From assembly GCA_051362555.1 (NCBI GenBank), contig CM120645.1, positions 13,516,001-13,580,000 of the forward strand: a DNA stretch of 64,000 nucleotides. The letters are read 5' to 3'. The position numbers and the translations under genes are program-made. Every line of letters starts with the position of its first letter. The stretch's first letter is position 1. Origin of the DNA: Lingula anatina. Taxonomy: Eukaryota > Animalia > Brachiopoda. The notes below the pieces were generated by a model. It was not told the origin of the DNA. It worked only from the letters and a program-made list of their open reading frames with translations, and made no database searches. Below, piece by piece: positions 11,431-64,000 of this stretch.

Positions 11431-13153
11431 CCTGTATTTGATTTTTGTCAAATTCCCAACAAAATCTAAAAATGAATAGATGTAGATGACAAAGATGTAA
11501 ATCAACAGAAATTATATATAGAAATTCACCGCAAGCGATGTGTTCTCCAAAGGTGTTCCCGTTTCGTCGTCGAACCAACAATATATATATATATATGGAT
11601 TCTGTCTCACAAATCTGCCCTTAGTCAAAATTCTAGTTGAAGCTTTCCAAGATAAAATCAACAACTGGGATATTCATATTAGGATGTCCGCTTGAAAACA
11701 AGCCCCTTTTCTAGCTCAGTCTGCTTGTGTGCGACGTCTATACCCAATTGCAATTGAATTTTCACTAAAACTACTAATTAAGGTACAATATGCCCATCAA
11801 AGATACAAATTCCACTTCCACAAGACGTAACTGAGTGCATTATCTGCAAACTAATAGGTAACATGTTATGAACTGAATGTAAAAGACAGAGAATGGTGCA
11901 TTTGAGTGATACAAGTAGCGCACTGTTCAGAAAAAAAGACTGAAAGGTGCAAACAAAAGATATAAATAAAATTATATAACACCCATGTTATATAATTCAA
12001 TACCCATGACGTGGAGGGAAAAGCTGAACATTGATTTTCCAATTGAAAAGTGGTAGTTAGTTCATGCTTTGCCCTTTCCGGAAAAAAATGATCATTAACT
12101 ACTGACATTGCAATTTAGAATTTTACATTGAATGTATTTCACGAATTCGATGCCTTTTAAATATAATATGTTAGAGCATGAGCGATGACCCTGTTATGAC
12201 CCTAAAGAAACTTATTGCATATTTTCTGGGATTGCACACATGTCCAGGCTATTTGGCCTTGTTTCATTCAGAACCTAAGTACACAGTACTCTGTTAAATT
12301 AGAACATTAATCTTGCCCGTTTATTTGGAATCTTGGACGACAGCCCTCTCTTAGGTATTAATCTACTACTTTTTCATATAAAGAAATAATTCACTCTATG
12401 TGGACAGAATAAAACTAACCTCTCTGGAATACCGGCAAAAAGTATTTGGAAAAGCAAAAGAAAATAGATTTTTAGTGTTTATACCTCCTGGGTCCTCAAA
12501 AAGCAGTTTCATTAAGAGAAAAGGGAAAGTATAGAACAATTGTCGTAGCCAAGGCCTACTAAAATTATTTTATTGAAAAATTATACATGTATTTTAATCA
12601 ACATTTGTAAGACCTTTTTTCAGTGTGTGAATGTCGTGTGGAACGTGTCTTAGTTGTCTCTCATTGTGTTTAAATGCCCTGTATTATTTTTTCTGTGAAA
12701 AAAAAAAAAATATATATATATATAAATACACGGGTAGCTTAGGTTTAATGTAAAAACAGTTGCTCAATATGGTTGTCACCGCCAATATTGTTGTTATAAG
12801 TGTCAGCTTTCCTTGAGTTGACAGTTCAGGGGCAGATCAAGGATTTTTTGAAGGGAGGATACGAAGCCGACCCTCCCCCACCCCACCCCCCTTGGCGTGT
12901 GGTTCAGGTTAATGTGCAATCATTCTAATCAACGGATCACTAACGGTATATATTGGTAATGATTTGCATTAAAAAATTATACAAAATAGCAAAATTAAAC
13001 ACAACCAGATAAAACTAAACATATACATGTATCTAATGTGTCAAGTACCAGTGCACCATGTAATGTGTCGATGACACCCTGATTAATAATAAGAATAAGA
13101 ATAGCCCTACGCTTTGTTATTTTCACAGTTTTTCCTTAAAGATAAGAATAGTC

Positions 13154-14315
13154 CTAATCAGCTTTGACTTTCTTAATCGTGATTAAGTGTGTAACATTTG
13201 ACAACCGCCACATTCCATCCTCTTCTTGGGAAATGCCATACTTGCTGCCCTCTCTCTGGACGAAGTCCATGCAAAATGACAACACACTATGGTCAAATTT
13301 GGACGCGGCATCTGCCCAACCATGGAAGTAGGTTGATAGGACCAATGCTCCGATCTCTGCCAGCGATGGTACCAAGAAATCACTCCTCGCCTCCTCGTGC
13401 CTTATCGAAGCTTTAAAGGTTGGAAATGATTCGTTCAGAATATGAGCAATTTCCCCTTGAAGCAGTAAAGAACTTCTAGCATCCGCTACCTTCGTTAGGT
13501 TAATGGCTTCATTAGGAAAACAAATCTTAAAACAGTGCACGGAGGTGTTTGTAATGAAAGCGTTTTTCCCGTTATCCATCTCTATTAATATCATACCTCC
13601 GGGCTTGAGGATGGAATACAGGGCAAATACAGCTCGCCTGATGTCTTCATTCGGATTAGCGGAATGATCAAACCACTTTGTGAGATGATAGATAGAATGT
13701 ATAGCAAGTACCCTGTCCTGTAGTTCTTTAGGATACGCGCCAATGGACATCAGATCTTTCACAGACTTCCCGAAGTAATCCTGGAACCGTCCAGAGTACG
13801 CCACATCCAGAGTAGCATTATCCAAGTTCTCAATGCATTTCTTGTATTTCTGCAGGGACTCTTCATTGGGTTCTTCCACGCTGACAATGGCATCCTTGTT
13901 GAGGTCTCTAAGCCTTTTACAAATGGCTGACATGGGGGTTCCTGTACCTCCCCCAAAATCCATTAGTCGGACCGGTGAAGAAAGTTCTGTAAGCTTTAGA
14001 CTGTTCATCCGAATGGTTTCGATGTTGTGTGAATCTCTTTTCCTGCTTTCTTCAACTCTGAGAAAAAAAGGCAATTGAGTTGAAATGCTTGCCGGATAAA
14101 AAGTTGTCCAAAATGAAAACGGAATTCTGAGCAAATGAACTTCTAGGTTACATGAATTGACTAATTTTAATTAAAATCATGCAGACTCACCCTTTGTTGA
14201 CGATATCTACACATTTGTGATAAGCTTCAGAGACTGTTAAGGTGCTGAACTCTTCTTCCAATCTAAACCGCATCTCCTTTTCTCCTAGCTCTCTCGCCTG
14301 GTATCTGGCTGCCAT
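13154..14315 (-). CDS. Class I SAM-dependent methyltransferase (histamine N-methyltransferase-like); join(14315..14191, 14057..13154)
   Basis: Exon 1 MAARYQARELGEKEMRFRLEEEF...VNK ends GG|GTGAG (phase 2) and matches acceptor CAG|A at 14057. Motifs: LMDFGGGTG (I), VSVEEPN (II), DRVLAIHSIYH, LKPGGMILI. Confidence 0.8.
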
Positions 14316-14661: not shown

Positions 14662-17282
14662 CATCATCATCATCATCATCATCATTTAGAGCCTATAGTG
14701 TTCCACTGTTGGACAAAGGCCTCAGCATGCTTTTTCCATTGTTTCCTATCCTGAGCCTCATATTTCCAGTTTGGCCAAGGTTTCTTCTTCCAAGACTTCC
14801 AGTAGTCATCTAATTCATCCCTCCATCGTTTGACCGGCCTTCCTCTTTTTCTTTGTCCATACCTTGGGGTCCATTCTGTAAGCCTGATTGTCCACCTATT
14901 GTCCTTCATTCTTTTGACATGTCCTGCCCACCTCCATTTCATTTCTTTAACTGTGAGCAGTACGTCCTTAACTTTGGTCTGTTCACGTAACCATACATTC
15001 GTTTTCCGCTCTCTTGGATTGATGTTCAACATAATTCTTTCCATCTTTCTCTGAGCTACTTGAAGCTTGTGTTCCATGGAGGCATTCAGTGCCCAGGTCT
15101 CTGAACCATAGGTGATTGCCGGCAGCACACAAGCATTGAACACTTTCTTTTTCAGGCAGGTAGGAAGGTTGCTCTTGAAGATGTCATTGTGTTTCCCATA
15201 TGCTGCCCATCATGCTTTTATCCTTCGTTGGATTTCTTTCTCCAGTGTTCGATCACTAAGGCTGAACCGTTGCCCAAGGTATATATACTCTTCTACTGCT
15301 TCTATCTCTTTGGTGTTGACCTTCACTGTGCAAGGGGTGGTTAGTGGTCCAAACATCACCTTTGTCTTGCTGGTGTTCATCTTTAGCCCACTTTTTGCGC
15401 TTTCATCTGCTAACGCCTGTAGCATTTTTTCGAGGTCTTTTGCATCATCTGCTACTATTATGATGTCGTCTGCAAACCTAAGGTGATTGAGCCTGGTACC
15501 GTCTATGTTTATGCCCTTGTCCTGCCAGTCTAGATCCCTGAATATACGTTCCAATGCTGCTGTGAACAGTTTAGGAGAGATTGTATCTCCGTGGCGTACA
15601 CCTTTCTTGATCCTGATCTTATTGGTGGTCTTGTGTAGTTTGACTGTTACAGAGCTATCGGTGTATATGTCTCTGAGGACGTCTACGTATCCATCTTCGA
15701 TCCCTAGATCTTGCAGGGATGCCAGTATATACTGGGTTTCTACTGAGTCGAAGGCTTTTTCATAATCAAGAAATGCTACACATAGTGGAATGTTATACTC
15801 GAGACATTTCGCTTTGAGCTGGTTGACAGTCTGCATATGATCAGTAGTGGTGTACTGGCCTCTGAAACCTGCTTGTTCCTTTGGCTGCGCTTCATCTAGT
15901 TGTCTTGTTAGCCTTTCGTTCAATATCTTGGTGTAAATCTTGTACAAATTAGAAAGTAGGCAGATGGGTCTGTAATTCTTGATGTCTTTCCTATTGCCCT
16001 TTTTGAACATTATGATCATGTTGGCGTTCTTCCATGCTACAGGAATTTCCTTCAGATGTAAGCACTTTGTGAAGAGCCTGGCTTATTCCTGAGATAGGAT
16101 ATCTCCTCCTGCTTTTACCATTTCTGCTTTGATGTTGTCATTTCCTGCAGCCTTTCCGTACTTCATTTTCTTGACTGCTGACTGTACTTCCCAAGCTGTT
16201 ATGTCTGGTAGATCGCATGCCTTTGTTGAGATTTCTATTCCCTTGTTGCTGTCATACAACTCTCCATAGAATTCTTCTACTCGTTCTAATATCTGGTCTT
16301 GTGTGGTGAGCTCATTTTCATCTTTGTCTAGAAGAGTCAGCATTCTATCCTGCCCTAGTTGAAAGGATCTCTTTGCTCTTTTCATGCTCTTTCCATTTTC
16401 GATGATCTCTGCTATCTTCTTCATGTTCTGCTTCCTGATGTCTTCCCTTGCCTTCTTCTTGATGGTCTTATCCAGTTCTGCATATTCGATGTTGTTTCTG
16501 ATGTCCCTGTTGTTGTTTACCTCCGTTTTCTTCATCATCCGTCTTTTCTTCACGAGAATCCTCGTTTCTGTTGAGAGCTTTGAGTCCTTCATTTTACTGG
16601 CCGGTGCGACTTCTGATGCACATTCTAGGATGGTGGTCGTTATTCTATCGTTCATTTCATCTACTCCATCTTCACCTTCTAGCTCTAGTACACTGAATCT
16701 GTTCTTTAGGAGGATTTGGAACTCGTCTTTCTTTATGACCAGTTGCTCAATACTAGGTCTCTTTGATGGATTTGACAGGCATTTCTGTCTGTTCTTCCTG
16801 ACATTGATCCTAATCACTCCCATTACTGCTCTGTGGTCACTGCCCGCATCCAGTCTGTTTAGCACTTTCACATCCGTGAAGATGTTCGGTCTGTTTGTCA
16901 TGATGTAATCAATTTCGTTTCTTGTACATCCATCTGGGCTTTGCCATGTCCATCTTCTTGATATCTTCTTCTTGTAGACGGTATTCATGATCTTCATGTT
17001 ATTTGCTGTCGCCCATTCAATCAGTAAGTCTCCTCTATCATTCCTCTCTCCGCTGCCAAATTTCCCTGTGGCACGCTCTTGTTCGTCTGACTTTATCCCG
17101 ATCTTGGCGTTGAAATCACCCATGACTATGTGGTAGTGGCAGTCTGTTGTCAACTGACGTTGTACTTCTTCATAAAGTTGTTCTACTTCTTCATCTGGTC
17201 TGCTTGATGTTGGTGCATATACCTGAATGAGTTTCATTGAGAATCTCTGATTCACTTTGAGCTTGACTGTAGCCAGTAACGC
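14662..17282 (-). mobile_element. 5'-truncated RTE-clade non-LTR retrotransposon (APE endonuclease + reverse transcriptase), inactivated
   Basis: Three ORF pieces in one frame separated by two nonsense codons (at ~16083 and ~15210). APE motifs QVYAPTS, MGDFNAKIG, EIDYIM, SDHR; RT motifs YRPICLL, DYEKAFDSV, GVRHGD, LRFADD; RTE-type C-terminus (KWRWAGHV...RGRPVKRWRD). 3' tail (TGA)n at 14661-14685. Candidate 8-bp TSD AGTACAGT at 14654-14661 and 17283-17290. Confidence 0.92.
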
Positions 17283-17509
17283 AGTACAGTAACGCATTCA
17301 AATTACCACTACCAGTTTCTTACGCAAAACAAATAAAACCCACATGTCTAACAAAAGGTGCAACCTAACCTAATTTTGGAAAAATTATTCTAATGAAATT
17401 AGGTTTTGAATAGAAAATAATGTGGCAAATATTTACAATAAACGACCACCAGGAAAACAAATCCCAAAATGGCACAGAGTGTCTCACCACCAGAAGTCTC
17501 AAATTAGTC

Positions 17510-34112: not shown

Positions 34113-37100
34113 TCACGAGCTATACACAGACTCTAACCGCAGATCGTCGATATCTTCATGACAGGCAGGAGTCAACGTAAAGAACAGTACAGTGGCAATC
34201 ACGGTGACGATCACGTAAGTACCAAAGACCAGTCTGTCAATGACGTAAGCGATCAGTTGCCATTGGGTCTTGGAGCACTCGTCTTCCTTTTGCTTCTGCC
34301 CGTCTTCATCGCCGCCCTGAAGCGTGCGCAGTATGTCCTTTAGCAGTTGTGTGCTCTTTAAGAGGTTTTCGTGATCATTGGAATCGTCCTCGGGAAGGCT
34401 AAGATCGCTTCTTTCCTGAGTATTGTGGCCGTTCAACCCGTTTTCGCTTTTCTTTTGATACTTCACCGCAGTCACGTTGGCTCCTCGTTCCCAACTATGA
34501 TGGTGGTCCTAAAATGACCAACGTTTGCCATGTTAACGGGATGCACAATACGTTTGCCCCCGATGAAGGGATTTCGCTTGCTAAGGACATCTCATATGTT
34601 TTATGTTATTATAAGGAAAATTAGGTCATACGTGTTTTATGAAGAAAAAAAAAGACCAAACCAAGAGCCACATTTTAAAAAGAACCATAAAGTATATCTT
34701 AAAGAATTTTTATACATGTAGTTGACGTTCTATTTTGAGTAAAACAATAAAAGCTGTTTTTATTAGCCCTTTAATTTCATGTCTCAACTATATGGTTTCA
34801 TATCGTTTGGTTTTAAAATATGTTATTATTATTATTGTTGTTTTTTCTATGTAAACTGTCGCGATTAAATATAGCTTGGGCTTTAAATGATAATTTATGT
34901 TAATGTTTTTAACGCTTTGCAGCCCTTAAATATAAATCCCACTTTTCTGACAGTTGTCATCCACTTCTGCAAGTGGCAATGTGGACAGTAAGTCCATGCA
35001 TTCCAAAAACTAAAACAATTCACCTCCGGTTCCTTTCCTCGAAGCGCCTCCTTTACCGTCTTTTTCTTTCCAATAACGGTGGCAACAAATCCTAAAAACA
35101 CCTTCTGCATCCAGTAGGGCACGCTCTGGCCACGCTCACCCCTGAAGTGGATGTTGGTGACCATGATACTAGTGATGGTTGAGATACAGAGCAACACCAG
35201 CACCGTCACGAGGTAAACACCTAAATAAATAAATAAAAGTATGGATGCAATTATTTAAATTAAAAAGCAATTAAAATGAATGAAGAAAGTAGAAATGTAT
35301 GAATGAAAAGTGCTACAGCCAGACAAACAACGAAAAAAATCTTGGAAAAGTGGACACTGCATGCCTATAGCGCAGTTATTTTCATGGTGGGAGCGTTGAG
35401 GAAAAAAACTAAATGTGTTACACGGAGATGGAGACCACAAGCATGGAGAATCATAGATAAATTGCAGCTTCCAACTGACACAGACTAATTATAAGATATG
35501 TATAGGGTTAAAATGAACGGTCTTACTCAAAACGGGGACCACCTCAGACTGCGTAGGTGTCAAATCGGAGACCAGCTGCAGGAACACCATCAGAGCCAAG
35601 ACGGCCGTCACACCAAAGGACACTTTCTCCCCAGACTCCACCGGTAGATAGAAACTTATGGCGGCCATGGCAAGAACCACGATACACGGCAGTACAAGGT
35701 TGAAGATATAGAACAGGGGTTTTCGGCAAACAATCAGATAAAAGGTCACATCTGGGTAGGGCTCTGGGCAGCAGCTGTAGTACTTCACGGTCCTCATGAC
35801 GGGTACCTTGGCAAGACGCCATTCCCCGTTGGTCACAAAGGATTTCATGTCACCCATTTCGGACATGTTCCGCAGGTCTAACTGGTACCCGTTGAAGTGC
35901 CAAGAGCCGAATTTGATGGGGCATCTTTGTGTGTCGTAAGGGAAGTAGTTAATATCCATCAAACAGCTGCTTTTTAGGATGATAGGAGTTCGCCAGGAGA
36001 CCAAGCCTTCGCTGGTGACGGTGGCAGTGTAGGCTGATAGGTCTCGTTCTTCTTCGCGGACGCTGGAGCCAGTTCAAATGAAAGATTTGAAAGTGCAGTT
36101 CTTGTGCTGCCAATGTGAAGACAAATATCTAAAGCCCCCTTTACACTGGGCGGCGTCCTTTCTGCGTTCCGACATACGGCTCCGTTTAAGAGTAAAAAAA
36201 AACTTATTAATTACGAGACTCGGGATTTATTCTGCGACCACAGCGATGCCACTTTCATGGTAGCACAAAGGACGCAGAAAGAACGCCGGCCAGTGTAAAG
36301 AGGGTTTAAGCTACTTCACTGAAGTGTCGAACGAAAGGTGATGCAATCCGAGCTGCTAAATATTTTAAATTGCACCTACGTAAAAAATTGCATTTCTATT
36401 GACAAAAAATAATAGAGGTAAATCTTTACTAATCTTTTATTAATGTACCTATTTTGTGTACATGCTGCATCACTAAGGAATACTATTACCATTCTAGAGT
36501 GACATCTCTACGTGTTAATTCATGCATGTATATAAACACACTGAAACAACACATGGTATATACTTCAGTATATACCCACTTACTCGTTATGAATGGTAAC
36601 GTCGGGTTTCCATATTGACGAAATAGAAACCTCGAAGGAAGAGATGTTATGGTAGTCAGTTGGGTTCCATGTAAGAATCTCATCCACCCATTGCTAAAAA
36701 AATGAAATATCATTCCATGTGAATCTAATGTCTCAAATGTTGGATCCACTTACTCGTTATAAATGGTAATGTCTGGTTTCCATATTGACGCAATTGACGC
36801 CTCAAAGGAAGAGATGTTATTGTACTCAAGTGGGTTCCATGTAAGGATCTCGTCTACCCATTGCTAAAATATGAAATATTGTTTGATTGAAAACAAATGT
36901 GTCGAAACATCCTAAAAGTCATTTTCACATATCGAAGAAAAGCTAGTATGAAAGCATATTTTAACAGTCCAATGGAAGCAAGGGAAAAGGAAAAAGTGGA
37001 CAAAAGTTAATATGTAATTAACATTTGTATACATCGATGCATATTTCACTCCCATACCTGTCTTAACCAGAGACTGAGGAACAAAATTTGTTCTGCTGCA

Positions 37101-38495
37101 TTCTGAAATAAAAAGCATAATATAATTAATATACATAAACAAAAGGTCATGCCACAATTTTTTTAATTCTTGACGTTTGCAGACAACTACACCTCATTAG
37201 TTTGGAGACACTGAAAACTCAACGACAGAGGGTAAAACCGAGACACGTTACATTTATCAGGGTTCTCTGAACCGCAGCCTTCTCCCATTAAAATTAAACA
37301 GAATTTATAATTTGTACAAATTTCTAGCTAACTGAAATGCTGGGGACGCAGAAACTGTGTCTTTTTATTAGTTCGCTTTATTAGATTGGCCACAATGCTT
37401 GACCCGTTACTACAGTGTAAATAATTTTGGATAGACGTGCGTCAAAGGAAAGAAAACCTCAAACACTATTTTGCCATGCATACCAAGTCGGATCCAGAAG
37501 GAACGCAAAGGGTAAACACTTCCGATCTGGTAATATCGGGGTGGAGAGGGGGATATGAGGTTTAAAAATACTTGTGTACGCGTACTATATGTTTGGTAGA
37601 TCAGTCAGTAAATCAGTCAGTTAGAAAACAGCACAAATCAAACCCCACCCATCCAAACCCCTAATTATATACTCACCAGTTCTATGAGTTGGTTAATACT
37701 AATATCGATGCTGACATTGACTGGCGTGTCCATGTCCTTCACTGGCCTGTTACTGCTGTCGTAGGTCTTGAACAACTCACTCTTTAAGTTGATCAGCGTC
37801 CCATACGAGCCTGTGCCATTGCTTATACCTACGTTGGAAACGATTAGAAAACATGAATGTCATTTACAACCTATATGGGAAATGAGTTCCCGTCATATGT
37901 AGAGTTATTCCTCGTACATGTATCATGCCTGCTTATTTTCATGCACGTTGTATGCGTGCCCGGTTGTGCATTCATGTTGTATGCGTGCCCGGTTGTGTTT
38001 GTTTCCCTGTGCGTGCATGCATGTGTCTGGATGAATTCGTTCAATATACTAAGTAAAAGGTAAAATACAAACCATTGTATCGATGCAATTTAATGTACCT
38101 GCACGTGTGTATTTGTGCTTTGGAGATGTAAGGTCATTGTGTTTTTCACACACAGCCCTACACGTACATGTATATTTAAGTACTACATGTAGTAAGGGCT
38201 AAATCTGTAAATAAACTATGACTCTAAATGAATGTAAATTCAAATAGACCGGGGTGTTTGTGATAATAATATGACAGCAATTTGTGTTTGCAGCAGGATA
38301 TACTCAATTAGAAACAATTCTGATTGTGTAATTGCAACTTTATCGGAAATTTCAATGTATAATTTACATCTTTCGTTTATTTCTCTTTGAATCATATCTC
38401 ACAAACGTGATTTGTATTAGTGTACATGTGAGTGTGCGTTTTTGCATGCGAGTTTAACTATGCGTGCATATATGTGTGTGCACGCTTATACCTAA

Positions 38496-38548
<53 letters not shown>

Positions 38549-41505
38549 GTTTACACAAGTCGAGTGTGTGTGTACTTCTGTGTGTGTGTGTGTATGCACC
38601 AGCTCGTTCGAGCGTGTCCCTCTACTTCTTTGTGCGTGAGTGAGTTTGTCATGTTGGGGCACGGCACCATTGTGGGTTTATGTCACTGGCGCTACAGCGG
38701 TAGACGAAGGAACTTTGTTGGCATTAAAACACAAGAAAGCAACACTGAAAACTGCATTTGCTCGGTTGAAGGTGCGAATAAGAGCAATTTGGTCCGACGG
38801 GATATTGCTGTTATATCATATCGCCAGCCCCTCTGACAAGCTGCCGAAAATCCAATTGCATTATTAGGTGAATCATCGGGCAATTGCTTTAATAACACTA
38901 AAAAGGCAAAGTTTTTACATTTTCATTTCCCCAAGTGTTGATTTCCGCTGTGATCAGACACTGTATTAATCAATGGTATCGAGATAAATGATAATTTTGC
39001 TATCACAATTGCATCACTCTGAAGATAATTATTTTAGAAACACGAAAAACGTTTCAAGTTTTCCGATTGTGGCGGCTGGCAGTTGCTTTTTCATTGCGCA
39101 CTATTACGAGGGAAATGCCGTTAATTTCCATTTGTTTTTATTGTAATGCTCACGTACGTACCGACTTTTTGGCATTAATTAAATGTATGTCTTCAGTTTT
39201 GTCTATACAGGAACAATCCTATTTCATCATAAAACAAGGTGGAAAATTTCATCAAACAATCTTGAACATAAGGTTTGGTTACCCTCTACCAGGGTGACTG
39301 ATAGATTTTTACGGATATTCACAGATATGTCTCTAGCTAGATAGATTGTCATTTTTAACTGAAGTCAAAATATCCGTAAAAATCTATCAGTCGCCCTGGT
39401 AGAGGGTAAGGTTTGGTAGCCTGTGTGTGTGTGCGTGTGGGAGCACGCGCGAGTCTGTAAATGTTGTTTATCTTTGTGCATGTGAATTCGTGAATGTTTA
39501 AGCGCATGTCATCACGTGTGATTGCACGCATCTGCTTCTTTGTGCACTATATTCTACATTCATTGGATGAGACCTACATGTATGCTACATGTATGCACAC
39601 TCTAAATGAGATCGTACATATATCCATTTCGTTAATTTCCTCGTGTTTACTGGAACTTAACGAGTATTGACATAACATCCGTGTTGTTTAGACAGCCTAC
39701 CAGCATTCCAGGTGCTTTTCCTTAATTTTTCTGTGCATCGTGCCTTTAACTAAATCTAACATATAAACAGCTGCCATCATATTGTTACATATGGAAGCTG
39801 AGCAAATTGTTTTGTCGCTTGATTTCCCATCTGAATGTGTGAAATAGTATAGCAAAACATTATCTAAACAAAAAACCCTCCTCGACTGCATCAATATGCG
39901 TACATGTAACTGGACTTCTGCTGTGCACTTAAAACTTAGCGGTAAACATAAGTGTACAAAACGATGTCCTCATTTACAATTTTTTTATATAAAATGCGTC
40001 TCATTGTGTGTAGTGATGTCGATAAATGGTGCTGATACTACCTACAGTAGGTCGCAGTACACTGTGCACCAGGTCACGTCGGGTCAGGAGAATGTTGCTA
40101 TGGTGACAAATGATGGTCTGAGTGCATGCACTCTGTACCAGAGGCCAGCTGGGTTAGGAAGTCTTTATTTTTATTTACAAAAATTCCCGCGGAACAGCAC
40201 AGAAATGTGTTCAGATTAACCAGAAAAAAATAATTGAATGTCTAGTTTAAAAAATTCTCGCCGTGAGACTGATACAGGGAAGCATTCCTTCAGAGCTAAA
40301 CACCCCTCTTCACCCCCACGGACATTTACCCCCACACCCACCCACCCACCCCTGACCCCCACCTCCGGGGACCACCTTCCCCTAGTTCAAATCCCCTCCA
40401 CACATGGTATAAATCAGCCAATTTTTTAGGCTTATCTTCATGTTTAGCCCCTTAACTTGACAGAACATGGTAGGTCATAACAGGGACGAAGAGCAGAGGA
40501 TAAATGCATGGTTGCAGTTTCTTTTTTCATGTTTATCCACACGTGAAATGTCTTGGTTGCTTTTACGTAAGGGAATACAATGTTTTATAAAACGCAATGT
40601 AACTTTTTATTAACATGTTAAGACACACGACTCCCTTCCTGTTGTTCAGGAACAAAAAGCAAGAAAAAAAGAATGCCTTTCGAAAAAACTAGATAATACG
40701 AATTATGGAATTCGATATGCTACGACGGGAAATTATAAATGATCCGTAGGATATTACTGATAGCAGGTTCAGCTATTAATTTATCTTAGCTAAACCTACA
40801 GGTAGTTGGGATAGAGCGTGAATAGTTTTATATTGGTAACTTAATAGTATTGCTATTATAAAAGGAATAATTTAGCTGTTCATCATTTCAGTGTGTACAG
40901 TACGTGTACATCTCACTTGAGAACTAAAAGCACCCGCATTAATAAATCACCTAATTAAATGTGCTAGGCCCTATAACTCACACGCGATGTCTGTTTTAAA
41001 TGCATGGTCATTGCATAGTGTTGCTAGGGCACTAATAACACCTTACTCTTCAAATGGAGATCATTTAATGAGATATCCTCGTTTCTTAACTCAAAATAAG
41101 AACAAAGTGTAAAGAAATAATTCCATATGACACTAAGGCACGTTTTGTATAGTACATCCTGATTCAAACTTTTGTGAAAAATTGTCCCCGATTTTCCTGT
41201 TTTGGCATCCATTCTTCAGTCACATTCGCGTGGAAGACCATAACATAATGTAAGACACACACGTACATACATATACTAGTATGTAGTTTTACGTCTGTTA
41301 TGACAGCACGTGCTAAGTATATACAAAAAATGCAAAAGGCATACAGATTCTCCTCACAGATATGTAGAGAAAAATGTAGTAATTAACAATGAGCTCGAGT
41401 TAAAAAATAATCAGTGATTCTCTACTTACCAGCAGATACGTACGTCGTCAGGGCAAGCAGCGTCGTCACCGCTATAAAAACGGAGCAAAATAACCTAAAA
41501 TCCAT
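34113..41505 (-). CDS. Nicotinic acetylcholine receptor alpha subunit (alpha9/alpha10-like), gene 1; exons 41505..41430, 37828..37677, 37102..37058, [36863..36754 or 36693..36584], 36062..35527, 35220..35024, 34508..34113
   Basis: All junctions are GT-AG and phase-compatible. Signal peptide MDFRLFCSVFIAVTTLLALTTYVSA; loop D SLWLRQ; loop A WKPD; Cys-loop CLMDINYFPYDTQRC; loop B FGSW; loop C YYSCCPEPY (vicinal Cys marks an alpha subunit); M2 SGEKVSFGVT; M4 QWQLIAYVIDRL. Confidence 0.92.
36133..36305. mobile_element. Harbinger/Tourist-like MITE in nAChR intron
   Basis: Imperfect TIRs AGCCCCCTTTACACTGGGCGGCGTCCTTTCTGCGT / ACGCAGAAAGAACGCCGGCCAGTGTAAAGAGGGTT, with TAA flanks. A related terminus is at ~30471. 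Confidence 0.6.
36584..36693 (-). CDS. nAChR gene 1 alternative exon 4b (loop A, His form)
   Basis: 110 nt, TTAG|...|GTAAGT; QWVDEILTWNPTDYHNISSFEVSISSIWKPDVTIHN. Confidence 0.75.
36754..36863 (-). CDS. nAChR gene 1 alternative exon 4a (loop A, Tyr form)
   Basis: 110 nt, TTAG|...|GTAAGT; QWVDEILTWNPLEYNNISSFEASIASIWKPDITIYN. Confidence 0.85.
39280..39408. mobile_element. 129-bp MITE with ~41-bp TIRs and 9-bp TSD (Mutator-like)
   Basis: TACCCTCTACCAGGGTGACTGATAGATTTTTACGGATATT / AATATCCGTAAAAATCTATCAGTCGCCCTGGTAGAGGGTA; direct repeat AGGTTTGGT at 39271-39279 and 39409-39417. Confidence 0.8.
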
Positions 41506-44322: not shown

Positions 44323-47300
44323 TTACTGCGTACTGTATCTGGTTCGCTGAAGTTGATCATCACACGGGGGAGTGTTAGCGAAGAACCAGATAGTCGCCAC
44401 GGTAGATAATATGAGGAAAGTATACAACACCAGTCTATCTATGACCACGGCTACCATCTCCCATTCCGTTTTCAATCGCTCTGCGGCCTTCTTTTCACGC
44501 CCGGTGCAATCCTCGCCCTTTAGGTTGCTTAAAATCTGGCGAAGCACACGCGTGGTGGCAGCGGAATTGGCGGTGGGATTTCCGCTTCCGCCATGAAGGC
44601 TCATTTCGTCTTGTGAGCTGTAAGGGTTGCTGTCGCTGAAGTGGGTTGGATATCGTGGTTTTTCACTGTCTCGGATGCTGTAGATGCTGCCGTTCGCTAT
44701 ACTGTCATATATGTCGCCGTTTGATGAAAGCCGTGGTCGTCCATTTCGACTTTCGCTCTGAAATTACAAGTGATATATATTATCTATATGACTATGGTAG
44801 TTAATAATATTAAGTCATTCTACAAATATAAACCTTTCAAGAAGTTTCGAGATGTAATTTTATGGTAAAGATTAACTTTTATGTATTTGTTTATTATTTT
44901 ATTATTATTTTTTTTTGGGGGGGGGGGACTCTCTAAAGATACAAAACAGCTGAAAAAACTAGAGGTGCAGATTGTTGATAAAGACAAATAAAGTAAGCAT
45001 GGCAAATAATGGAGGAGAAATATGAACTTTAAAGAAAGTATAAGAAGCAGAATCATACATGTATAGGCTCTAATTTGAAAACGTTCTCTGCATCTTCATC
45101 AAGCGCCGTTTTGATTGCTTTCCTCTTGCAGACGATTGTGCCTAAAAACCCCAAGACCAGCTTCCTCATCCAGTTGGGCATCTCGTGACCTCGTTCTCCG
45201 CTGAAGTGAATGTTGGACACCACGATGCTGCTCATGGTGGATATACACAGTAATAGTAGGACAATGCCCAGGTACATACCTGCAACGGCGGAAAAATATA
45301 CGGAAAACTGTGTGAAATTATATGGACTTTTTCCTTTTTTCTTCGTAAAATACGGATTCTTTGAAAATAAGAGTTTTCACTTTGAAAATATCAATATGAA
45401 TTTTTTCAGTTATTTTTTCGATGTAAAAATACTTATAAAGGTATAATTAATGGATTTGATTTTCTGTGTGCACTTGGAAGTATAACGAACTTCTCAGGAC
45501 AAAGAAATAACTAGGTTTCGACTTAAGTATAGATATGCGTGTGGGCAAATATTACCTCGTGCAAGTTATTTTTTTCTTAATGCTAAAAAATGGAATAATA
45601 CATAAATAAATTACTGGTACAATTTATTCATATCTTTAAGGGTCACCGGCAAAAATTCTTAAACTGACTGACTAGCTACATGAATTGTGGAATTATTCTC
45701 CTTAAAGACATCTAGGATTTGACATCTCAACTTACTTAATACTGGAACCACTTCAGACTGAGTAGGCGTTAAATCCGAAACCAGCTGCAAGAATACCATC
45801 ATGGCCAACACAGCAGTCACACCAAACGACACTTTCTCTCCGGACTCCACCGGTAGGTAGAAACTCACAGCCGTCATGGACAAAACCACAATACAAGGCA
45901 AGATCAGATTGTACAGATAATACAGAGGTTTACGACACATGATCAGATAAAATGTGACGTCAGGGTAAGGTTCCGGGCAGCACCCGTAGACAGTGGAAGT
46001 TCGTATGGCGGGAGCAGCCATTAATTGCCACTCTCCATTTGGAACAAACGACGTCTGGTCTCCCGTCGCGCTCTTGTTCCGCAGATCCAGCTGGTAACCA
46101 TGGAAATGCCAGGAACCAAATTTTACTGGGCAGGCTTGTTTGTCGTATGGGAAGTAGTTGATGTCCATAAGACAGCTGCTCTTCAGGATGAGTGGATACC
46201 CCCACGTGACCTTGCCGTCGCTGTGGACCGTGGCGGGAAATCCGCTGACATCTCTCTCCTCCTCTCGTACACTGCAGTATAGAGGATGATTTGAATTCAA
46301 AGAATGCATTAACAGATTGGATGAATAATAAAATGAATAAATAGATAAATAAATAAATGGATAAAAAGTAAAATGCTGAATGTTTATTTCAAATAGTAAT
46401 TATTGATTACACGATGTATTTCACTATGTAGGCTACTTGCATGCCATCACAAACACACACACACACACACACACACACATAATGGAATAATGCCCCCTCC
46501 AAATCTAATAATGCAATTCTAATGAAAAGTCAATTTAATATTTTATAAAGCACTTATATGTATTTCTCACTATACGTGTGTACTACCTTGTTTTCCATTT
46601 GTGTAATTCACGTAATATTAAAAACAGGCTTATATTTAACCACCTTCAATTACTTCTTCATATGATTTGAACTGTATCGAATACAAGTTTGTATTGAAAC
46701 GTTACATATTAGTCTACGATATTTCATCATAAATGAGGTTACCTGCAGCATGTGTATGCGCCATTACAATTTTTTATCGTTATTTGATTACATCATGAAT
46801 CAATTAAAGGTGAAAGATTAGTTTTTTCTTCTCTATTTTTTTCTGTGCATATTTATGTTTATGTGTGTTTGGGCATGCGTATATGCGCGTATATGCGTAT
46901 ATGTGCTCGCCTGCATGTGTGTGAATGTAAACGTGTGTGTTTATATGTGTTTGTGATTGGGTGCGTGTTGTGAGTTAGTACGTGTGTGCGCATGTGTAGG
47001 GCCTACTTGCGCCTGCGTGCATGTTGAATGTTTAATCACACATACTCATTATATATAGTAGTGTCCGGATTCCATATGCTATCAATGGCGACATCGAAAC
47101 TAGTGATGTTGGCGTGCTCGGACACATTCCATGTGAGAATTTCATCTTTCCATTCCTGAGAATAAAGTTGAAAGATTATTAAGGCTCAGTGGTGTTCAGC
47201 TGAATTTTCGAAAATTTTGGACAGACTTCATAATGAGAGACACTAGAAGACCTACATCGCTTCAATGGATACGATCGCGGACATACAGACTTGACATTTA

Positions 47301-49975
47301 ATATGGAATATTTCAGTTTCGAAGGTATACCTAGGTAAAAATACGTTCTTTTTTTCAAAAACATCTTATCTCATATAAGATTTGTGAATGTAAAAGTGTG
47401 CAGTCAGGTGTGTCACTACCAATTAACTGACTTTCATGCCTATTGCACTGCTACATTATGTAATTTGCAGTGATTTAATTGGGTAGTGTTCCTTTGGGCT
47501 GATCAAAGCTTGGCTTAGGCAAAGCTTGGTTTTGTCAAAAAAGTATCCATATTTCGACAACTACTGCATAGAAGAATTTGAAATTTTGCATGCAAGCGGT
47601 CAGTTTTGCAGTGCGTAAAATGAGTCAAGTAGTGCATTACAAAGTTGTTAATCTAAGGCAGAATGGCGCGAAAAAGACAAACATAACCAGACAGATCATA
47701 GCGCCAAACGGAACGGTCCCCACAGTTTTATAGAGTAATGCCCAGACTGATGTACCTACACAGAGGTCACCCCCAATGTGTCAAAATTTTACCTACAGGG
47801 TACAGGACCCACTGTCTATCGGGATACGCTGCTGCAACTAAACAAAAAACATTTAGTCCGTTCAGAACGAGGGGTAAATTGCCACTAAAATGCGTTTTTC
47901 AAAGCCCTTAGCGAACACCAAACTGGTTTTAGCAGGTAAGAACACCAAATGACCTCCGAGGTACCCACTGTATACAGCAAAACATCGTCAACTGTTTCTC
48001 TCATGAATTGGGGGCCATGAACGATTCTGGGTAGAACACTGAAACTGCGTGACTTTCTTTATTGAGGTCAGATTTCACCTGTACCGCCCAATTAGTCAAA
48101 ACAGAGTTTACAGATATCCAGAAGAGGCCTACGACGAAGCATATGCCGGGTCTAAAGTGACAAGGGTGATTGACAGCGTCAATATTTGGAGTAGATTCCA
48201 CATTGGTGCCAAAACACCAATGGTAGTCATCGACGAAAACCTGAACCAGATCAAATAAAGGAATAATCTCGGAACCACTTGACTATCATTTGATAGGGGG
48301 CACCTTAGGAACAAGTCTAAGTTGCACGATGAGGTTGATGGTTCACACAGAGCACTTTTAATAGCAGATAACTTACAGAACCAAGGGAATGAGCAGCTAC
48401 CCTGGTCATCAAAATCGCCACATTTGAACCACATAGACAATATTTCGGTAGACCATTATTCACCAATCAACTGCCTACATGTCCTACAACAAAACTGGAC
48501 CAGATTGGACAATTTTAGACCGATGCCTGGAATGCTATTCCAGATTGAACTCTAAAAACCTACCCCCAAGAAATGCCTTGCCGCTTGAGAGCGCTGGCAA
48601 CAGCCACGAAGAGGCCAGGCGTAACAACGAGCATTACTGTGACTAGCAACTGACATGAGGGTCTTTTGTGGAGCGTATTACCCTTTTACAGACGATAATT
48701 TGGAAAATATGGAGATCCAAAATATCTCTTTTAATGGGGGTCGTATGACATAGAATAGGCAATGTGTTTTTGTTTGCTTCTCTGGCGAATTCCATTAATG
48801 AACTGATGTCACAATGACATCAAAGAGATAATTTAAAGTTATTAAAACACGATATTAATCCTTATTTTCATTTATCAGTCAGCAAAATAGGAAAAAACTG
48901 ATGAAAAATTATTTCGAAAAAAATATTCCATATTAAATGTCAAGTCTGTATAACAGTGACAATTCATTGATATTTCAGAAACACTGAACCTGTGGCTCAT
49001 TAACCCTTATTTGACATAGCCATGTCTGATAACCAACATATAAATTATTCTTTTAGCTTTAATTATTTAAAAACATATCAGTACTGAAAACACTGTCGCA
49101 GACATTTAATTTATCTCCTAAATCACTTCACAGTGTACTTTTAAAAGCTGCTGGCTTGAGCAACTTCGAGTGGAAATAACAATAACATTGAAATATATTC
49201 AACAGAAATGAACTGATTAATTCAAATTAATGGTCAATATAAAAGGTCTTTGATACCATGGATCCACCGGCATTTTACCTAATAATAAGGTTCAACCCTG
49301 ATACATGTAATACTACAAGAACAAAAAATAAATACCGGTGTGACAGGAATGGCAGTATGCTGGGAACCGGATAGTCTGTGTCCCATTACTTTGTACAGGG
49401 GGCATTCGTCCCCTATACTAACGACTTACCCGAATAACCCGGTACTAATCATATGGGACCCGGTGTAACGTGCTAGAGAGCCCCTCATGATGGAGATTCC
49501 GCTTCCATTTTATTTGTGAGGTAAGCCTCGCCTTAGAATTTGACCCACTACATTACACCAAGTTAACCCTAACCATTATAACTAAATGAAGGTCAGTTAC
49601 ACGGACTCTCAGTTTTGTAACACCGGGACTTCCATTCCCAGGACTACCATTCCTGTCACACCGGCAATGACTCCAATTACCTGTCTCACCCACAGACTGA
49701 CGAACAGCGTCTGCTCTGCTGCGTTCTGAAACAACAATTAAAATGCTTTAAAAAGGTCCAGAGGGTTCGTACGACATTCCATGAAATTTTCTTATATTCA
49801 TTATGTGTTGCACGCAATAAGGCTTTCAAAATTATGTTCTCAGTTTAAACCAATGTAAGTGACTGAAGATACGTGAAATTGTAATCCGTAATTTAAGGAC
49901 TATAATATATGTAAATAGCAGGGGTATATCTTCTCTTCTGTATTGTGAAATGCAATTGGATTATAACGAAATCGT

Positions 49976-50019
<44 letters not shown>

Positions 50020-53000
50020 AGATCCTTACCAATTCAATAACTTGGTTAACACTTATATCTATTTTCACAGTAACTGTGTGGTTCGGATTTACAACCGGCC
50101 TGTTGTCTGCGTCATATTCAGAGAGGAGATTTTTCTTAAGGTTGACCAAAGTTGTATAAGTAAACGAGTGTGCCGAAACTGAGATGACTGAAAAATAAAA
50201 AATATAAATGTTAAAAAAACAGTCATGCGTGGGTGCTAACGAGGCAACCGATGGGAACAATTCTTTTAGTGTAATATAAAGTGTATATAGACAGAGGTAG
50301 GGGTTGGTATTAGAGGGCTAGTGGATGGGACGTGGGCGAATGAAGTGTCTCGGTCTTGAGCCTGTTTTGGTACAATCCATTATCCATTACTTATGACATA
50401 GGTTTTATTACTCTACGCTTTCTCGTCTTGGCCTCCTTTTTTTAAAGTCCCAAAAATGTATATATGACCTTATTCAAATAGACACATCGTACTAGTTAGG
50501 TCGATCCAACTCTGAGGGGCATACATCCCCAACCATTGCAATCAGCTTAATTATCTGGGTAATTAACTTTATACTAGCTGCACGAGGAGGTGTGTCATTC
50601 TTAAAGCTGATCGCACTTAGTGAGAACCCCCGCAGAGTAAGACCGACCCAAATGGTTCGATGTGTCTACCTGAAAGCTTCCTATAACTGCGAGAACTATT
50701 GAGTCTTTTTGTATGTTATGTGATGATCAGGTGAGAAAGAGTGTGAATAGCAATAAGAAATGAACCCGCTTTACTCTAAATATATAGACTCGTAATTGTT
50801 AATGCAATTAAGAAGTAGCCCCCTACCCCATCTCGCCCTTTCCCCATTACCAACACTGCAAAAAATAATGTATTGTTATTTTTCAAAGAGCTATAACAAT
50901 TAACTCTATTGTAACCTAATGCGATGATAGCAACTCATTGATTTCCGCAACATAAAAGCGAAAATGACCCAATGTTTCGCCCACGAAAATTGATTTTGGT
51001 AAAATTGCTTCCTAGAGTTGATAAAAAAATAAGAGTCAATAACTTCTGACTGTACAGAAATTAACCTCACTTTCCCACATACATCATAATTTGTTTTGAT
51101 GAAGTTCTGTAGATTACGAGGTTCCGTTGGTTTATTATCTATGGTTATTCCTTCAGAGAGGCTATTGACCGAACTGTGCTGTAGGTCTGCCCCTGCGAAA
51201 ATTTGTCTCATTTAACGCTCACTTACGGTTCTCAATCTGTCATAGAACATAATGTTTTCTCTTTTAATGGAAAATGTACTTAATCTGTTCTAGGACATTC
51301 TGAAGGACTTCCCCAAAACAGTTCTGGAACTGTTACATTCAATATCAGAACAACATTAGAACTGTAAAAAAAAAAAAATACACCAAATGTTCTAAAAGAG
51401 ATTGAGAACCGTAAGTGAACGTTAAATAAGACACATTTTTAGCAGGGGTGCTGCCTTTAATACATAAACTACAAAGGCAAAAATGGACTTTTCAAGATAT
51501 TGTTTTTACAATTGGCTATGAAATGGACCTCTTTCAGTGACTCAAAGCACATATCATACTGGGCAATCCATCCAGTTGCAAAACAGAAACTGTAACTGTT
51601 GTTAAGAGGAGGGGGTACAAAACTTAATTGCCACACTTAAAATTCACATTTTCAAACCGTGTTTGTTCTTGAAAGAAATGAGCATCCAATATTTTCAATT
51701 AAAATATTCCACGTATCTCGGCAATGATGTCTCTACCAGAGGTGGGTGTGCTTTCCCTAGTAAAATTTTAATTTTAGAATAAATATTTGAGGGCAGTGCA
51801 GTCTACAATCTGAATTCTTTGATTTGAATATTTAATAAAAAAAAAAGAAATGCCATTTATTTATTTTACACTTACTGCTTTAATTGGATATTAAAAATAA
51901 ATTTCCGGTTATACGTGTAATGACGGCGATTGCCAAACCCATAATAACACGTTTACAGCCGCATACATCGACAAATTGCAACACTCAAAAGATATTATAT
52001 TTACCATGCCAATACAAAAGAATAAGTACATTAGCTGTGAAGTCAACTTTACTGCCGACTTTCGTTCTCCCATGAACCGAAAACGAGTCACATGATGTTG
52101 ACCTAATTTTACCATGACGTTGCTAACTTTTTCCTTAATTGCAAATAATGGAATTTCTATGTTTCTTTAATGTAATGTTTATCAGCCTGCTATGTGAATA
52201 CATTTTCCTCTTGTGTCGTCTGACATGTACAGATCTGAAGAAGCCAGCCTTCCTAATTTGGCAGAGAGATTGCACAGGCACCGTTAACACGTGCTTTGTC
52301 GCCGAAAGTAGGTTACGCGCGTCGCCTACAGCGAAATGTTAATTTCTGCATACAGCATGATTTTAAAGCCAATTGAAATATTTTAGTGGGATTTATGGCC
52401 AAAATAAAAACAGTCCAACAATAAAAAAGCAGTCCAGTTGGCAAATTGGCGACACAGATTGCTTTAAAGTGTGAAAATAAGTTGGAAACGTCGACAAAAC
52501 CGTAGGAACTGCTAGCCCTGTCTGGCTAGCGGGCTACCGAAAATGTTGAGCTATGGGCAAAGATTTTTTCTCATATATTACACAACGGATGCTCAGATCT
52601 AGTGAACAGCTGAAATATGCCATAAGCCATTTGGAATTTCTGATTGTATACACCGCAGAGGCGTGGTTTTAGTGGCTTGCCTTATGATGCAATTTAACCT
52701 TAGACCCCATTCCCAGATATTAGATCGATCCAACTAAATCGACCTAACTCCCTGGTGGTTCACGCAAAATAGCTGTCAGACGAAAGTTAATTACCCCCTT
52801 TCAGCTTAGTAGTAGTCGGGACGGACATTTAAGCCGGATAATCTGACAGTAATCTAGTGAGACTCCCCACGGGGATAAATCGATCTAAAATCTATGGGAA
52901 TGCGCCCTTTGTCACATACCAATTGAACATGTCATTTAACCAGCATGGTATACTTGTAGACTGGATGAGTGATTATGACTTGAATAAACACGAGACGACC

Positions 53001-57993: not shown

Positions 57994-60900
57994 ATGGCAA
58001 TGAATGCAGGACTAAGCGGATTGTCATGGAAACTCTGCCTGTTGATGGTTACCATAGATATGAATTCGGGTAAGTATAAGATTTGATGTGTTCAATATTA
58101 GCATTATATTCTTTGAGTATTGCTAACGATGAAGGCATCATTAAATCAAATAGTTCGTAATATTAAATATTTTTATAATTTTTGTGACCTGTTGTCTAAA
58201 ATTATGCCACCAATTTGTCGTCCACAGTATTATTTATAGATTGCCTACTTTGCTCATTTCGTTTCGTAACACTGTATGGATGGACCTTTCACGTCGTTTG
58301 AAATCCCAGAATGCGGTGTTCCCTTTCTGGAAGATTTATTCTGGACTTTTTTCTTATTTTCGCCATAAATTCCAATAAAATAGTTCAATTGATTTTTTTA
58401 AAACCAGCATTACACTGTGGGTGACCGACTTAAATTGTGGTATAAAGCGCGTGTTAACGAGGCCTGTACATTCTTACTGCCAAATTATGACGGCTGACTT
58501 CTTCAGACCTGTCCGACAAAGCAAGAGGAAAATGCCTTCTTCTACATGTAGCAGGCTGATATATCTTACATTAAAGATTTGTAGATATTCCATTATCTAT
58601 AATTATGGAAAAAGTAAGCAACGTCCTAGTAAAATTAGGTCAACATCAAGTGACTAGAATTCGGTTTATTTGTATATGAAAGTCGGCAGTAAATTTGACG
58701 TCACAATTATACGACTCATTCTTTTGTATGACATAAATGCATTTTTAACAAAAAGACGAATATATCTCATGAATCTTATATTATTGCTACCCGGTATATA
58801 GTGTTGTTGTTGTCTGCTTTTCCCGCGGTTTTAAGTAGGTCACCAGTGACTATGCAATGTCAGAGAGGGCTCCGTCAGTTAAAATCTCTTAAGAGATTTT
58901 AACAAAAAACCGTTCGTTTAGGAAAAAAAAAACCCTGGATTAACTTTGAATGCAGGAATGGGGTCGTTGACCATTGGTAAGTACGGGAAAATTGCCGTTT
59001 TTTCCCGGAAAATCCAATTTTTGGCCAAAACGAAGAGTTATTATGATTTTAAACAGATTAATAGAAGTTGCCGTTACCACTGACCTCTTTTTCCTTTTTC
59101 TTTTTCACATAATATTTAAATAAGAAAAAAACTCAGATGGTGGACTCCACTGCCCATAAATTTTTATTCTAAAACTGATTTTAGGAGACGCGCCTCCACC
59201 TTTCGTAAAGACATCACTGCCGAGAAACGTGAACTATCTTAATTGAAAGTATTCGGCGCCCTAAACATTAAAAACAAGCACGGTTTAAAATGGTTTCTAA
59301 GTGTGGCAATTAATTTTTATAACCCCCTACAATAAACAGTTACAATTTCTGTTTTTTTCCACTGCATGGATTGCCCAGTATGCCATGTGCTTTGAGTCAC
59401 TGAAATGGGTCGTTATCATAGCCATTGTAATATACGCACATTTTTGTAAAAAAAAAAAAAAAAAAAAGATCCCCTTCCCATACCTAGATCGATCTTGCAG
59501 GCTCGGCCCATCTCCGAGGGGTTTCTCGCTAAATTACATTCGACTTAAGCGGCTCTGATGTCTGCCACGCCTACTGAAGCTGTTAAGGTGTAGTTAACTA
59601 TCGTTTAGCAGCTTCAGTGAGCGTGCCAGACATCTAAGCCACTTAAACTGAAAGCAATTTAGCGAGAATCCCCTAGGAGATGGGTCGATCCTGCTAGATC
59701 GATCTAGGTATAGAAATGGGGTCTTTGTGGTTTATGAATTGAGGACAGTAGTCCCACAGCTAAGCTGAGGGATAATATGATCTGCTGGTAAAGAGGCTAT
59801 CTGAAGGAATTGTTATAGATAATTAACAAACGGAGCTTTGTTATATGTACAGAACCTCATCCAAACAAATTGCCATGTACCTGACAAAGTGGGGTTAATT
59901 TCTATACAGTCAAAAGCAATTTAATCTATTTTTTATCAACTCTATGAAGCAATTGTATCAAAATCAATTTTCGCATTCGAAATGTTTTGACATTTTCGTT
60001 ATTATTTTGGTGGAAATCAATGAGTCGCTATCATCGAATTAGGTTACAACTGAGTTAATTGTTATAGCTTTCTGAAAAATAACAAAACATGTTTTGCAGT
60101 GGTGGTAATAGGAAGAGGTTAAAGTGGAGTAGGGGGCTAACTCTTACGAGTCTATGTTTTAAGAGTAAATCGGATCCATTAATTATTTCTATTCACCCGC
60201 ATTCTCACCTGATCATCACAACAGAACATACAAAAACACGCAATTAAACAATTATTGGATTTTAAAAAATGAGGTATTGACGAGAAAGTTTACAGTAATA
60301 TAATCTCTGTCATAATAGATATCTTGTACCAAAATAGGCTCTAAGACCGAGGCACTTCATTCGGCCACTCATCCACTCGTCCTCTTACACCAACTCCTAC
60401 CTCTGTCTATATACATTATATTTCACTAAGGGAATTGTTTGAAACAAATAACACCATCGGTTGCCTTTTTAACACTCATTGTTTATTTTTTTTTTTTGAA
60501 AAATCCATTTAATTTGTGATTTTTCAGTCTTCTCAGTTTCGGCACACTCGCTTACTTATAGAACTTTGGTCAAGCTTAAAGAAAAGCTCCTCTCTGAATA
60601 TGACGCAGACAACAGGCCCGTTGTAAATCCGAATCACACAATTACTGTGAAGATAGATATAAGTATTAACCAAGTTATTGAATTGGTAAGGATCATATCC
60701 TCTCTCTGTCTCTTTCTCGCTCTCTCTTTAAACCCTATTGTTTTTTCATATACTTTAGAAGATATTCGCCTACTATTCATATATTTATCATTTTTGATTT
60801 TAAGGAAGTACGCAAACATTAGAATTAGTATTTCACTATCTTAAGTCATTTACATTTGCAATGATTAAATTGAGAATAAAATAGATTTGCCATTTTAAAG

Positions 60901-63900: not shown

Positions 63901-64000
63901 ACTTTACTTTAGTACAACGTCTTGATCATAGCCAATAAGGTAAGCAATTTTACTTCTAATTTCAGAGCGAAAATCGAAATGGACGACTGCGGCTTTCATC
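57994..64000 (+). CDS. Nicotinic acetylcholine receptor alpha subunit (alpha9/alpha10-like), gene 3, 3'-incomplete; exons 57994(or 58000)..58069, 60528..60685, 61005..61049, 61480..61589, 62596..63131, 63487..63707, 63966..>64000
   Basis: Exon lengths match gene 2 (70/158/45/110/536/221 nt). Cys-loop, VYGCCPEPY, GEK, M1-M3 present. The last exon runs off the window. Confidence 0.92.
59466..59725. repeat. ~255-bp foldback (near-complete palindrome) element in intron 1 of gene 3
   Basis: Arms TACCTAGATCGATCT.GCAGG...CTGAAGCTG.TAA and TTAGCAGCTTCAG...CCTGCTAGATCGATCTAGGTA are centred on TAGTTAACTA (59591-59600). Confidence 0.8.
62178..62372. repeat. Inverted repeat with ~80-bp arms in intron 4 of gene 3
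   Basis: GTTGCAATAAAAGCTATAAATACAATA...TTTTGGGAGGACATTT / AAATGTCCTCCCAAAA...TATTGTATTTATAGCTTTTATTGCAAC. Confidence 0.85.

Follow-up and report, generated by a model that had tools for sequence, protein, structure and literature searches.

Among the nicotinic acetylcholine receptors (nAChRs) of insects, tandem duplicated alternative exons are known from alpha4 (exon 4/4'), alpha6 (3a/3b and 8a/8b/8c) and Bombyx alpha8 (an exon 7 pair), the last pair being 86% identical and called recent (PMC2045683). The regions reported to be changed by these insect exons are loops D and E, the Cys-loop or TM2-TM3 (PMC2045683, PMC2064938). Exons 3 and 6 of insect RDL and exon 3 of GluCl are likewise duplicated alternative exons of the extracellular domain in Cys-loop channels, and for RDL a change of GABA affinity through splicing has been reported (PMC2064938). 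For human genes, PMC5740500 gives as criteria of exclusivity a distance of less than 50 nt between donor and branch point or an exon length not divisible by three. Furthermore, nAChR genes are described as tandemly expanded in lophotrochozoans (PMC6896357).

The stretch analyzed here, referred to as the window, comprises 64,000 nt of the genome of the brachiopod Lingula anatina and carries on its minus strand a gene which, judged by its sequence, is an alpha9-like, alpha-type nAChR subunit. Exon 5 of this gene shows 100% identity over 178 aa to the Lingula anatina protein XP_013380777.1, and the next eight matches to this exon are Lingula paralogs. In the encoded protein both PF02931 and PF02932 score above the cut-off, the predicted subunit contains the Cys-loop as well as the vicinal Cys pair C225-C226 of loop C, and its best match among solved structures is human alpha7 (E 2e-81). 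The gene model consists of seven exons and yields 503 residues with either exon 4a or exon 4b. The first coding exon (41430..41505, 76 nt), which encodes the signal peptide, was placed by tblastn to XP_013380777.1, by an exon 1-2 junction in 7 reads of RNA run X1 and by the gene model, exon 2 (152 nt, 37677..37828) by RNA junctions, tblastn and the gene model, and exon 3 (45 nt, 37058..37102), which bears loop D with W88, by its joints to 4a and 4b and a residue check. The alternatives 4a (110 nt, 36754..36863) and 4b (110 nt, 36584..36693) were delimited by RNA joints and loose read ends and are separated by an intron of 60 nt (36694..36753). They are followed by exon 5 (536 nt, 35527..36062), which contains the Cys-loop, loops B and C and the first transmembrane helices and was defined by protein identity and the model, and by exons 6 (197 nt, 35024..35220) and 7 (396 nt up to the stop codon, 34113..34508), both defined by RNA reads and the gene model. 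A putative microexon between exons 6 and 7, proposed from an RNA joint with 4 letters in between, was rejected because its ends are not splice sites and because it coincides with the site where the RefSeq model P0033 has Ser for His374.

The exon pair is already present in the automatic RefSeq annotation, where it is modelled as isoform X1 (XP_013380777.1, with 4a) and isoform X2 (XP_013380778.1, with 4b). These isoforms are of equal length, belong to one gene and differ at six residues, Tyr126 being found in both; the RefSeq cluster further includes the partial model P0033 (341 residues). Two more alpha9-like paralogs, which are divergently oriented, were located at 44326-50191 (minus) and 60527-64000 (plus) and match the RefSeq models P0003/P0036 and P0037/P0005, forming a three-gene cluster together with the gene studied. 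Elsewhere on the minus strand the window contains a non-LTR retroelement (14685-17297) with endonuclease and reverse transcriptase domains in three open stretches, and three long single open frames (4671-6329, 9793-11511 and 13157-14170). One of these frames has ubiquitin-like matches, one has only a sub-threshold match to DUF5871, and another codes for 572 residues, among them a hydrophobic segment at the N-terminus, and lacks a Pfam match. Short intronic inverted-repeat-like elements at 36130-36310 and at about 39290-39410 attracted numerous reads of either strand that match only in part and are therefore likely dispersed repeats.

The initial annotation had described 4a and 4b as two open exons of 110 nt which lie 60 nt from each other, show no indels and are bordered by TTAG at the acceptor and GTAAGT at the donor, and the minus-strand sequence agrees with this description in every point. 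The two are adjacent, homologous and equal in length and phase, and each possesses its own splice sites. In the window sequence 15 of the 110 nt distinguish them, and 13 codons out of 36 are affected, 6 by synonymous and 7 by non-synonymous changes; their termini read WKPDITIYN for 4a and WKPDVTIHN for 4b, as previously noted. When a profile built from the exon-4 copies was run against the entire window, it returned exactly four copies and no fifth (E ~1e-31; next match E=1), which corroborates the earlier statement that each of the paralogs 2 and 3 has a single copy. The frameshift predicted for joint inclusion also holds: in the gene model the use of both exons leads to a stop at codon 194 and the skipping of both to a stop at codon 129, preceding the last junction by 644 and 619 nt, respectively.

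Nine RNA runs are available for the species, seven of which (X1-X4 and X7-X9, 6-30% of each) were analyzed and two of which (X5, X6) were left out; useful depth was reached only in RNA runs X1-X3, which belong to one study, while X4, X7, X8 and X9 contributed only few reads. All four junctions expected for single use of the two exons, namely 3-4a, 3-4b, 4a-5 and 4b-5, were found. In a first alignment of RNA run X1 the 4a-5, 4b-5 and 3-4a joints were covered by 38, 10 and 25 reads, respectively, and the 3-4b joint fell below the listing threshold. A second alignment of RNA runs X1, X2 and X3 gave 25, 12 and 13 reads for 3-4a and 2, 3 and 2 reads for 3-4b, and loose ends carrying the exon-5 consensus were counted 29, 27 and 23 times for 4a and 9, 10 and 10 times for 4b. 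Over these three runs the totals amount to 50 reads for 3-4a, 7 for 3-4b, 79 for 4a-5 and 29 for 4b-5. RNA run X7 contributed one further read of the 4b-5 joint, and the three aligned reads of RNA run X9 contained no joint. Conversely, no 4a-4b joint occurred among the joints listed in seven RNA runs, where listing starts at 3 reads per run and rarer 4a-4b products are possible below it; no 3-5 joint skipping both exons occurred among the joints listed in four runs, and in the middle of the 60-nt intron (bin 36722-36749) the read depth was 0 in 4/4 RNA runs. The mutually exclusive use of 4a and 4b is hence borne out by the junction reads together with RefSeq isoforms X1 and X2.

Exon 4a is the major alternative, 4b accounting for 12-27% of the spliced reads. 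On the exon-5 side the share of 4b was 24%, 27% and 30% in RNA runs X1, X2 and X3 (pooled 29/108, 27%), and on the exon-3 side it was lower (7/57, 12%; p 0.05, or p 0.09 with three loose-end reads added), a gap which may be due to the near-identical 5' ends of 4a and 4b. Within 4a the reads carry a variant at 36830 (L103I; 7/32, 9/19 and 11/25 in RNA runs X1-X3), hitting residue 103, which is also among the 4a/4b differences, and a synonymous variant at 36810 (5/28 reads of RNA run X3).

The likely origin of exclusivity is the short intron. Invertebrates such as Drosophila routinely splice introns of about 60 nt. A motif scan of the intron gave three adenosines resembling branch points as candidates, at distances of 34, 44 and 51 nt from the donor of 4a; with either of the first two, less than 50 nt would remain between this donor and the likely branch point, and since this distance would be so short, direct joining of 4a to 4b is likely blocked. 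As a back-up to the short intron, a double or skipped product would be frameshifted, would meet an early stop and would likely be decayed. Decay would hide double inclusion equally well, and the poly(A) reads consequently fit either a splicing block or decay; the steric role which the initial annotation had suggested for the intron is plausible. A helix of 12 bp that would connect intron 3 (36966-36955) with 36873-36862 is not claimed, as it was selected post hoc and reached by 90 of 2000 shuffles; the complementarity of the intron-3 segment extends over the 4a acceptor and over only 8 bp of the 4b acceptor. By prediction, the Lingula pair would show both of the properties given for human mutually exclusive exons (PMC5740500), although the 50-nt limit was set on human introns and may not hold in Lingula.

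Regarding the protein, residue 126 aligns without gap to Tyr115 of the human alpha7 precursor, which is Y93 once the 22-residue signal is removed; the assignment of this residue to the loop-A position Y93 was hence correct. The aromatic box (W88, Y126, W182, Y223 and Y230) is complete in RefSeq isoforms X1 and X2, and only the 4b of the window departs from it, by His126. C225, C226 and four N-glycosylation sequons are likewise the same in both RefSeq forms, and a glycosylation difference between the 4a and 4b forms was rejected. Six differences are common to the window and the RefSeq forms (L103T, E104D, N106H, A113V, A116S and I123V); they map to alpha7 positions 70, 71, 73, 80, 83 and 90 and sit in the apical loop, the following strand and, with one Ile/Val exchange, loop A. 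Residues 103, 104 and 106 (positions 70, 71 and 73) fall inside the loop equivalent to alpha1 67-76, that is, the apical loop which corresponds to the main immunogenic region of the muscle receptor, and in muscle alpha1 this loop is described to pack on the N-terminal helix (PMC5404922).

The two exons appear to be old. Their comparison gave dS 0.42 and dN 0.09-0.10, and the dN/dS of 0.21-0.24 (Fisher p 0.007-0.013) sustains the earlier proposal that both are maintained and fits purifying selection on 4a and 4b alike. The two are 15 nt apart from each other and each is 37-39 nt away from the paralog exons; in a tree of 14 rows and 36 residues they pair with a support of 92/95, which is below the mark of the tool for strong support. 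The duplication probably concerns this gene alone and would postdate its split from the paralogs. Among proteins of similar length the exon region matched only five Lingula RefSeq models and no non-Lingula orthologue, and among shorter proteins it matched nothing. The short predicted proteins P0115 (Logan), P0067 (ENA), P0052 (Tegillarca granosa) and P0146 were flagged for an exon-4-like segment, and P0115 (with nearly identical copies), P0067 and P0052 contain two such copies in tandem; these may be mis-joined tandem exon copies, hinting at duplication of this exon in the receptors of other animals, or artefacts of assembly or prediction.

The reads of RNA run X1 do not stem from a gene copy identical to that of the window. 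RNA run X1 shows at least 39 fixed differences in exons 5-7 (1129 nt), its 3' half (34113-36062) departs from the window by about 3.5% or more and matches P0033 (XP_013380779.1), and 10 of the 11 residue changes of this run are shared with the latter. Exons 3, 4a and 4b, in contrast, contain one fixed difference in 265 nt (p 0.003). RNA run X1 may therefore report either a close paralog or a divergent haplotype, the alleles then being deeply diverged and recombining, and RNA runs X2 and X3 of the same study probably report the same divergent type. In RNA runs X7 and X8 some P0033-like sites are present and others absent.

A functional difference between the two forms can be considered. With about even chances of being right, we suggest that acetylcholine binding is the same in both forms and that a modest difference in their folding, assembly or surface contacts arises through the apical loop, which holds three of the six fixed changes and would be the proposed site of such a modest tuning. 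The alternative that survives best is that the 4a and 4b forms are equivalent and 4b is a redundant copy, kept because it is still spliced into about one quarter of the transcripts; splicing itself is accepted therein, and the His allele of the minor copy would do mild harm and be tolerated. Such equivalence agrees with the conservative nature of four of the six fixed changes (E/D, A/V, A/S and I/V), with the similar share of 4b in RNA runs X1-X3 (heterogeneity p 0.82, one study), which gives no sign of regulation, and with the consideration that any exon entering a pentamer would face purifying selection. A dS of about 0.42, however, means that both copies are long-lasting, and the scarcity of fixed differences in exons 3, 4a and 4b relative to exons 5-7 argues that 4a and 4b are under no weaker constraint than the rest of the gene. 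We regard equivalence as a possible explanation, though a somewhat doubtful one.

The histidine codon of 4b (36589..36591) was the basis of the central claim of the initial annotation, according to which splicing switches the agonist pocket from Tyr to His. This claim failed: at 36591 all 31 covering reads give a Tyr codon (9/9, 10/10, 11/11 and 1/1 in 4/4 RNA runs), and RefSeq isoform X2 (P0032) has Tyr126. These reads come from individuals other than that of the window, and for His among 4b reads they set an upper 95% bound of 9%, derived from only 4 samples. Since the downstream exons of RefSeq isoform X2 are of the window type, both downstream types agree on Tyr in 4b. All residues of the aromatic box are thus common to both forms in the reads and in RefSeq, and a switch of the agonist pocket is not supported. 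His126 results from a single-base difference and was present in the window alone and in none of the reads or reference proteins of this gene; furthermore, window and RefSeq disagree at residues 4, 6, 7, 22, 394 and 404, and the window consequently represents another haplotype. A private allele or a consensus error is the likely origin of His126, and with good confidence we conclude that the duplicate 110-nt exons are used singly, that reads and references keep the loop-A Tyr, and that the His of the window falls into one of these two classes. For Lingula a heterozygosity of 1.6% is reported (PMC4595640), and a difference between duplicate exons in the assembly of one heterozygous animal should be checked against other individuals.

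It is very improbable that the His codon is a selected allele segregating in some Lingula populations. If it were, its carriers would gain an altered agonist pocket in the minor isoform only, whenever 4b is chosen, and such a splice-gated polymorphism would allow a new ligand or pH response to be tried with the major form intact.

Still less probable is that the alternative splicing is only apparent and reflects a pair of near-identical genes, of which one uses a 4a-like and the other a 4b-like exon. The close model P0033 does lie on the same scaffold as RefSeq isoforms X1 and X2, and the reads of RNA run X1 do resemble it. Nevertheless, 4a and 4b stand in tandem within one gene of the window, and RefSeq assigns both exons to isoforms of one gene. 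The exon-5 differences of RNA run X1 are moreover fixed (e.g. 113/113 reads at 35856), and where reads of 4a and of 4b run on into exon 5 their loose ends carry an identical consensus, which indicates that 4a and 4b join one type of exon 5.

There is next to no likelihood that splicing toggles Tyr and His at loop A throughout the species and thereby alters affinity, ligand or pH sensitivity. The 4b of the window does encode His, and a natural His occurs at the loop-A position in 9 of 143 motif matches among 133 proteins, including an alpha9-like protein of Amphiura, though this set is biased, having been found with the His-bearing exon as query and containing some unrelated repeat proteins without the motif. 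In an earlier set of 43 proteins, however, 38 showed the loop-A motif, with Tyr in 37 of them and His in none, and with His in 0/31 reads and 0/1 RefSeq 4b models the switch is refuted as a fixed feature. Complete C-to-U editing of a genomic His codon into Tyr, suggested by C in the window versus U in every read (transcript strand), is hardly credible and also unnecessary, because RefSeq models are translated from a genome assembly and isoform X2 has Tyr, so that a Tyr codon exists in a genome, and because the reads represent other haplotypes, which are set apart by numerous fixed differences of every type.

Judged by the titles and abstract openings of the papers listed, there was no literature on the splicing or isoforms of this gene, although MetazExp may contain the event, and the main text of PMC6896357 contains neither 'anatina' nor 'splicing'. 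The closest known entry is the RefSeq pair XP_013380777.1/XP_013380778.1, which represents the same gene and the same exons and is distinguished from the window by Tyr126 in 4b and by the six other residues listed above. The exon pair is real and used, and it is an exon duplication of a known sort, located on an exon other than those of insects. The work adds a lophotrochozoan nicotinic receptor to the read-validated cases of mutually exclusive splicing, which is of modest significance, and it provides a natural six-residue pair for testing the role of the apical loop outside myasthenia antibody binding.

In comparison with the known systems, the precedent of insect alpha4 and alpha6 invoked by the initial annotation stands as far as alternative duplicated exons are concerned and does not extend to the region affected, which in those genes is loop E/Cys-loop, loop D or TM2 (PMC2064938, PMC2045683). 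RDL and GluCl differ in being anion channels, changed near loops D and F. At 95 of 110 identical nt (86%) the Lingula pair equals the identity given for the Bombyx alpha8 pair. Unlike the insect exons, the Lingula exon encodes the apical loop, the next strand and loop A, it belongs to a brachiopod alpha9-like subunit, and its duplication is an independent one.
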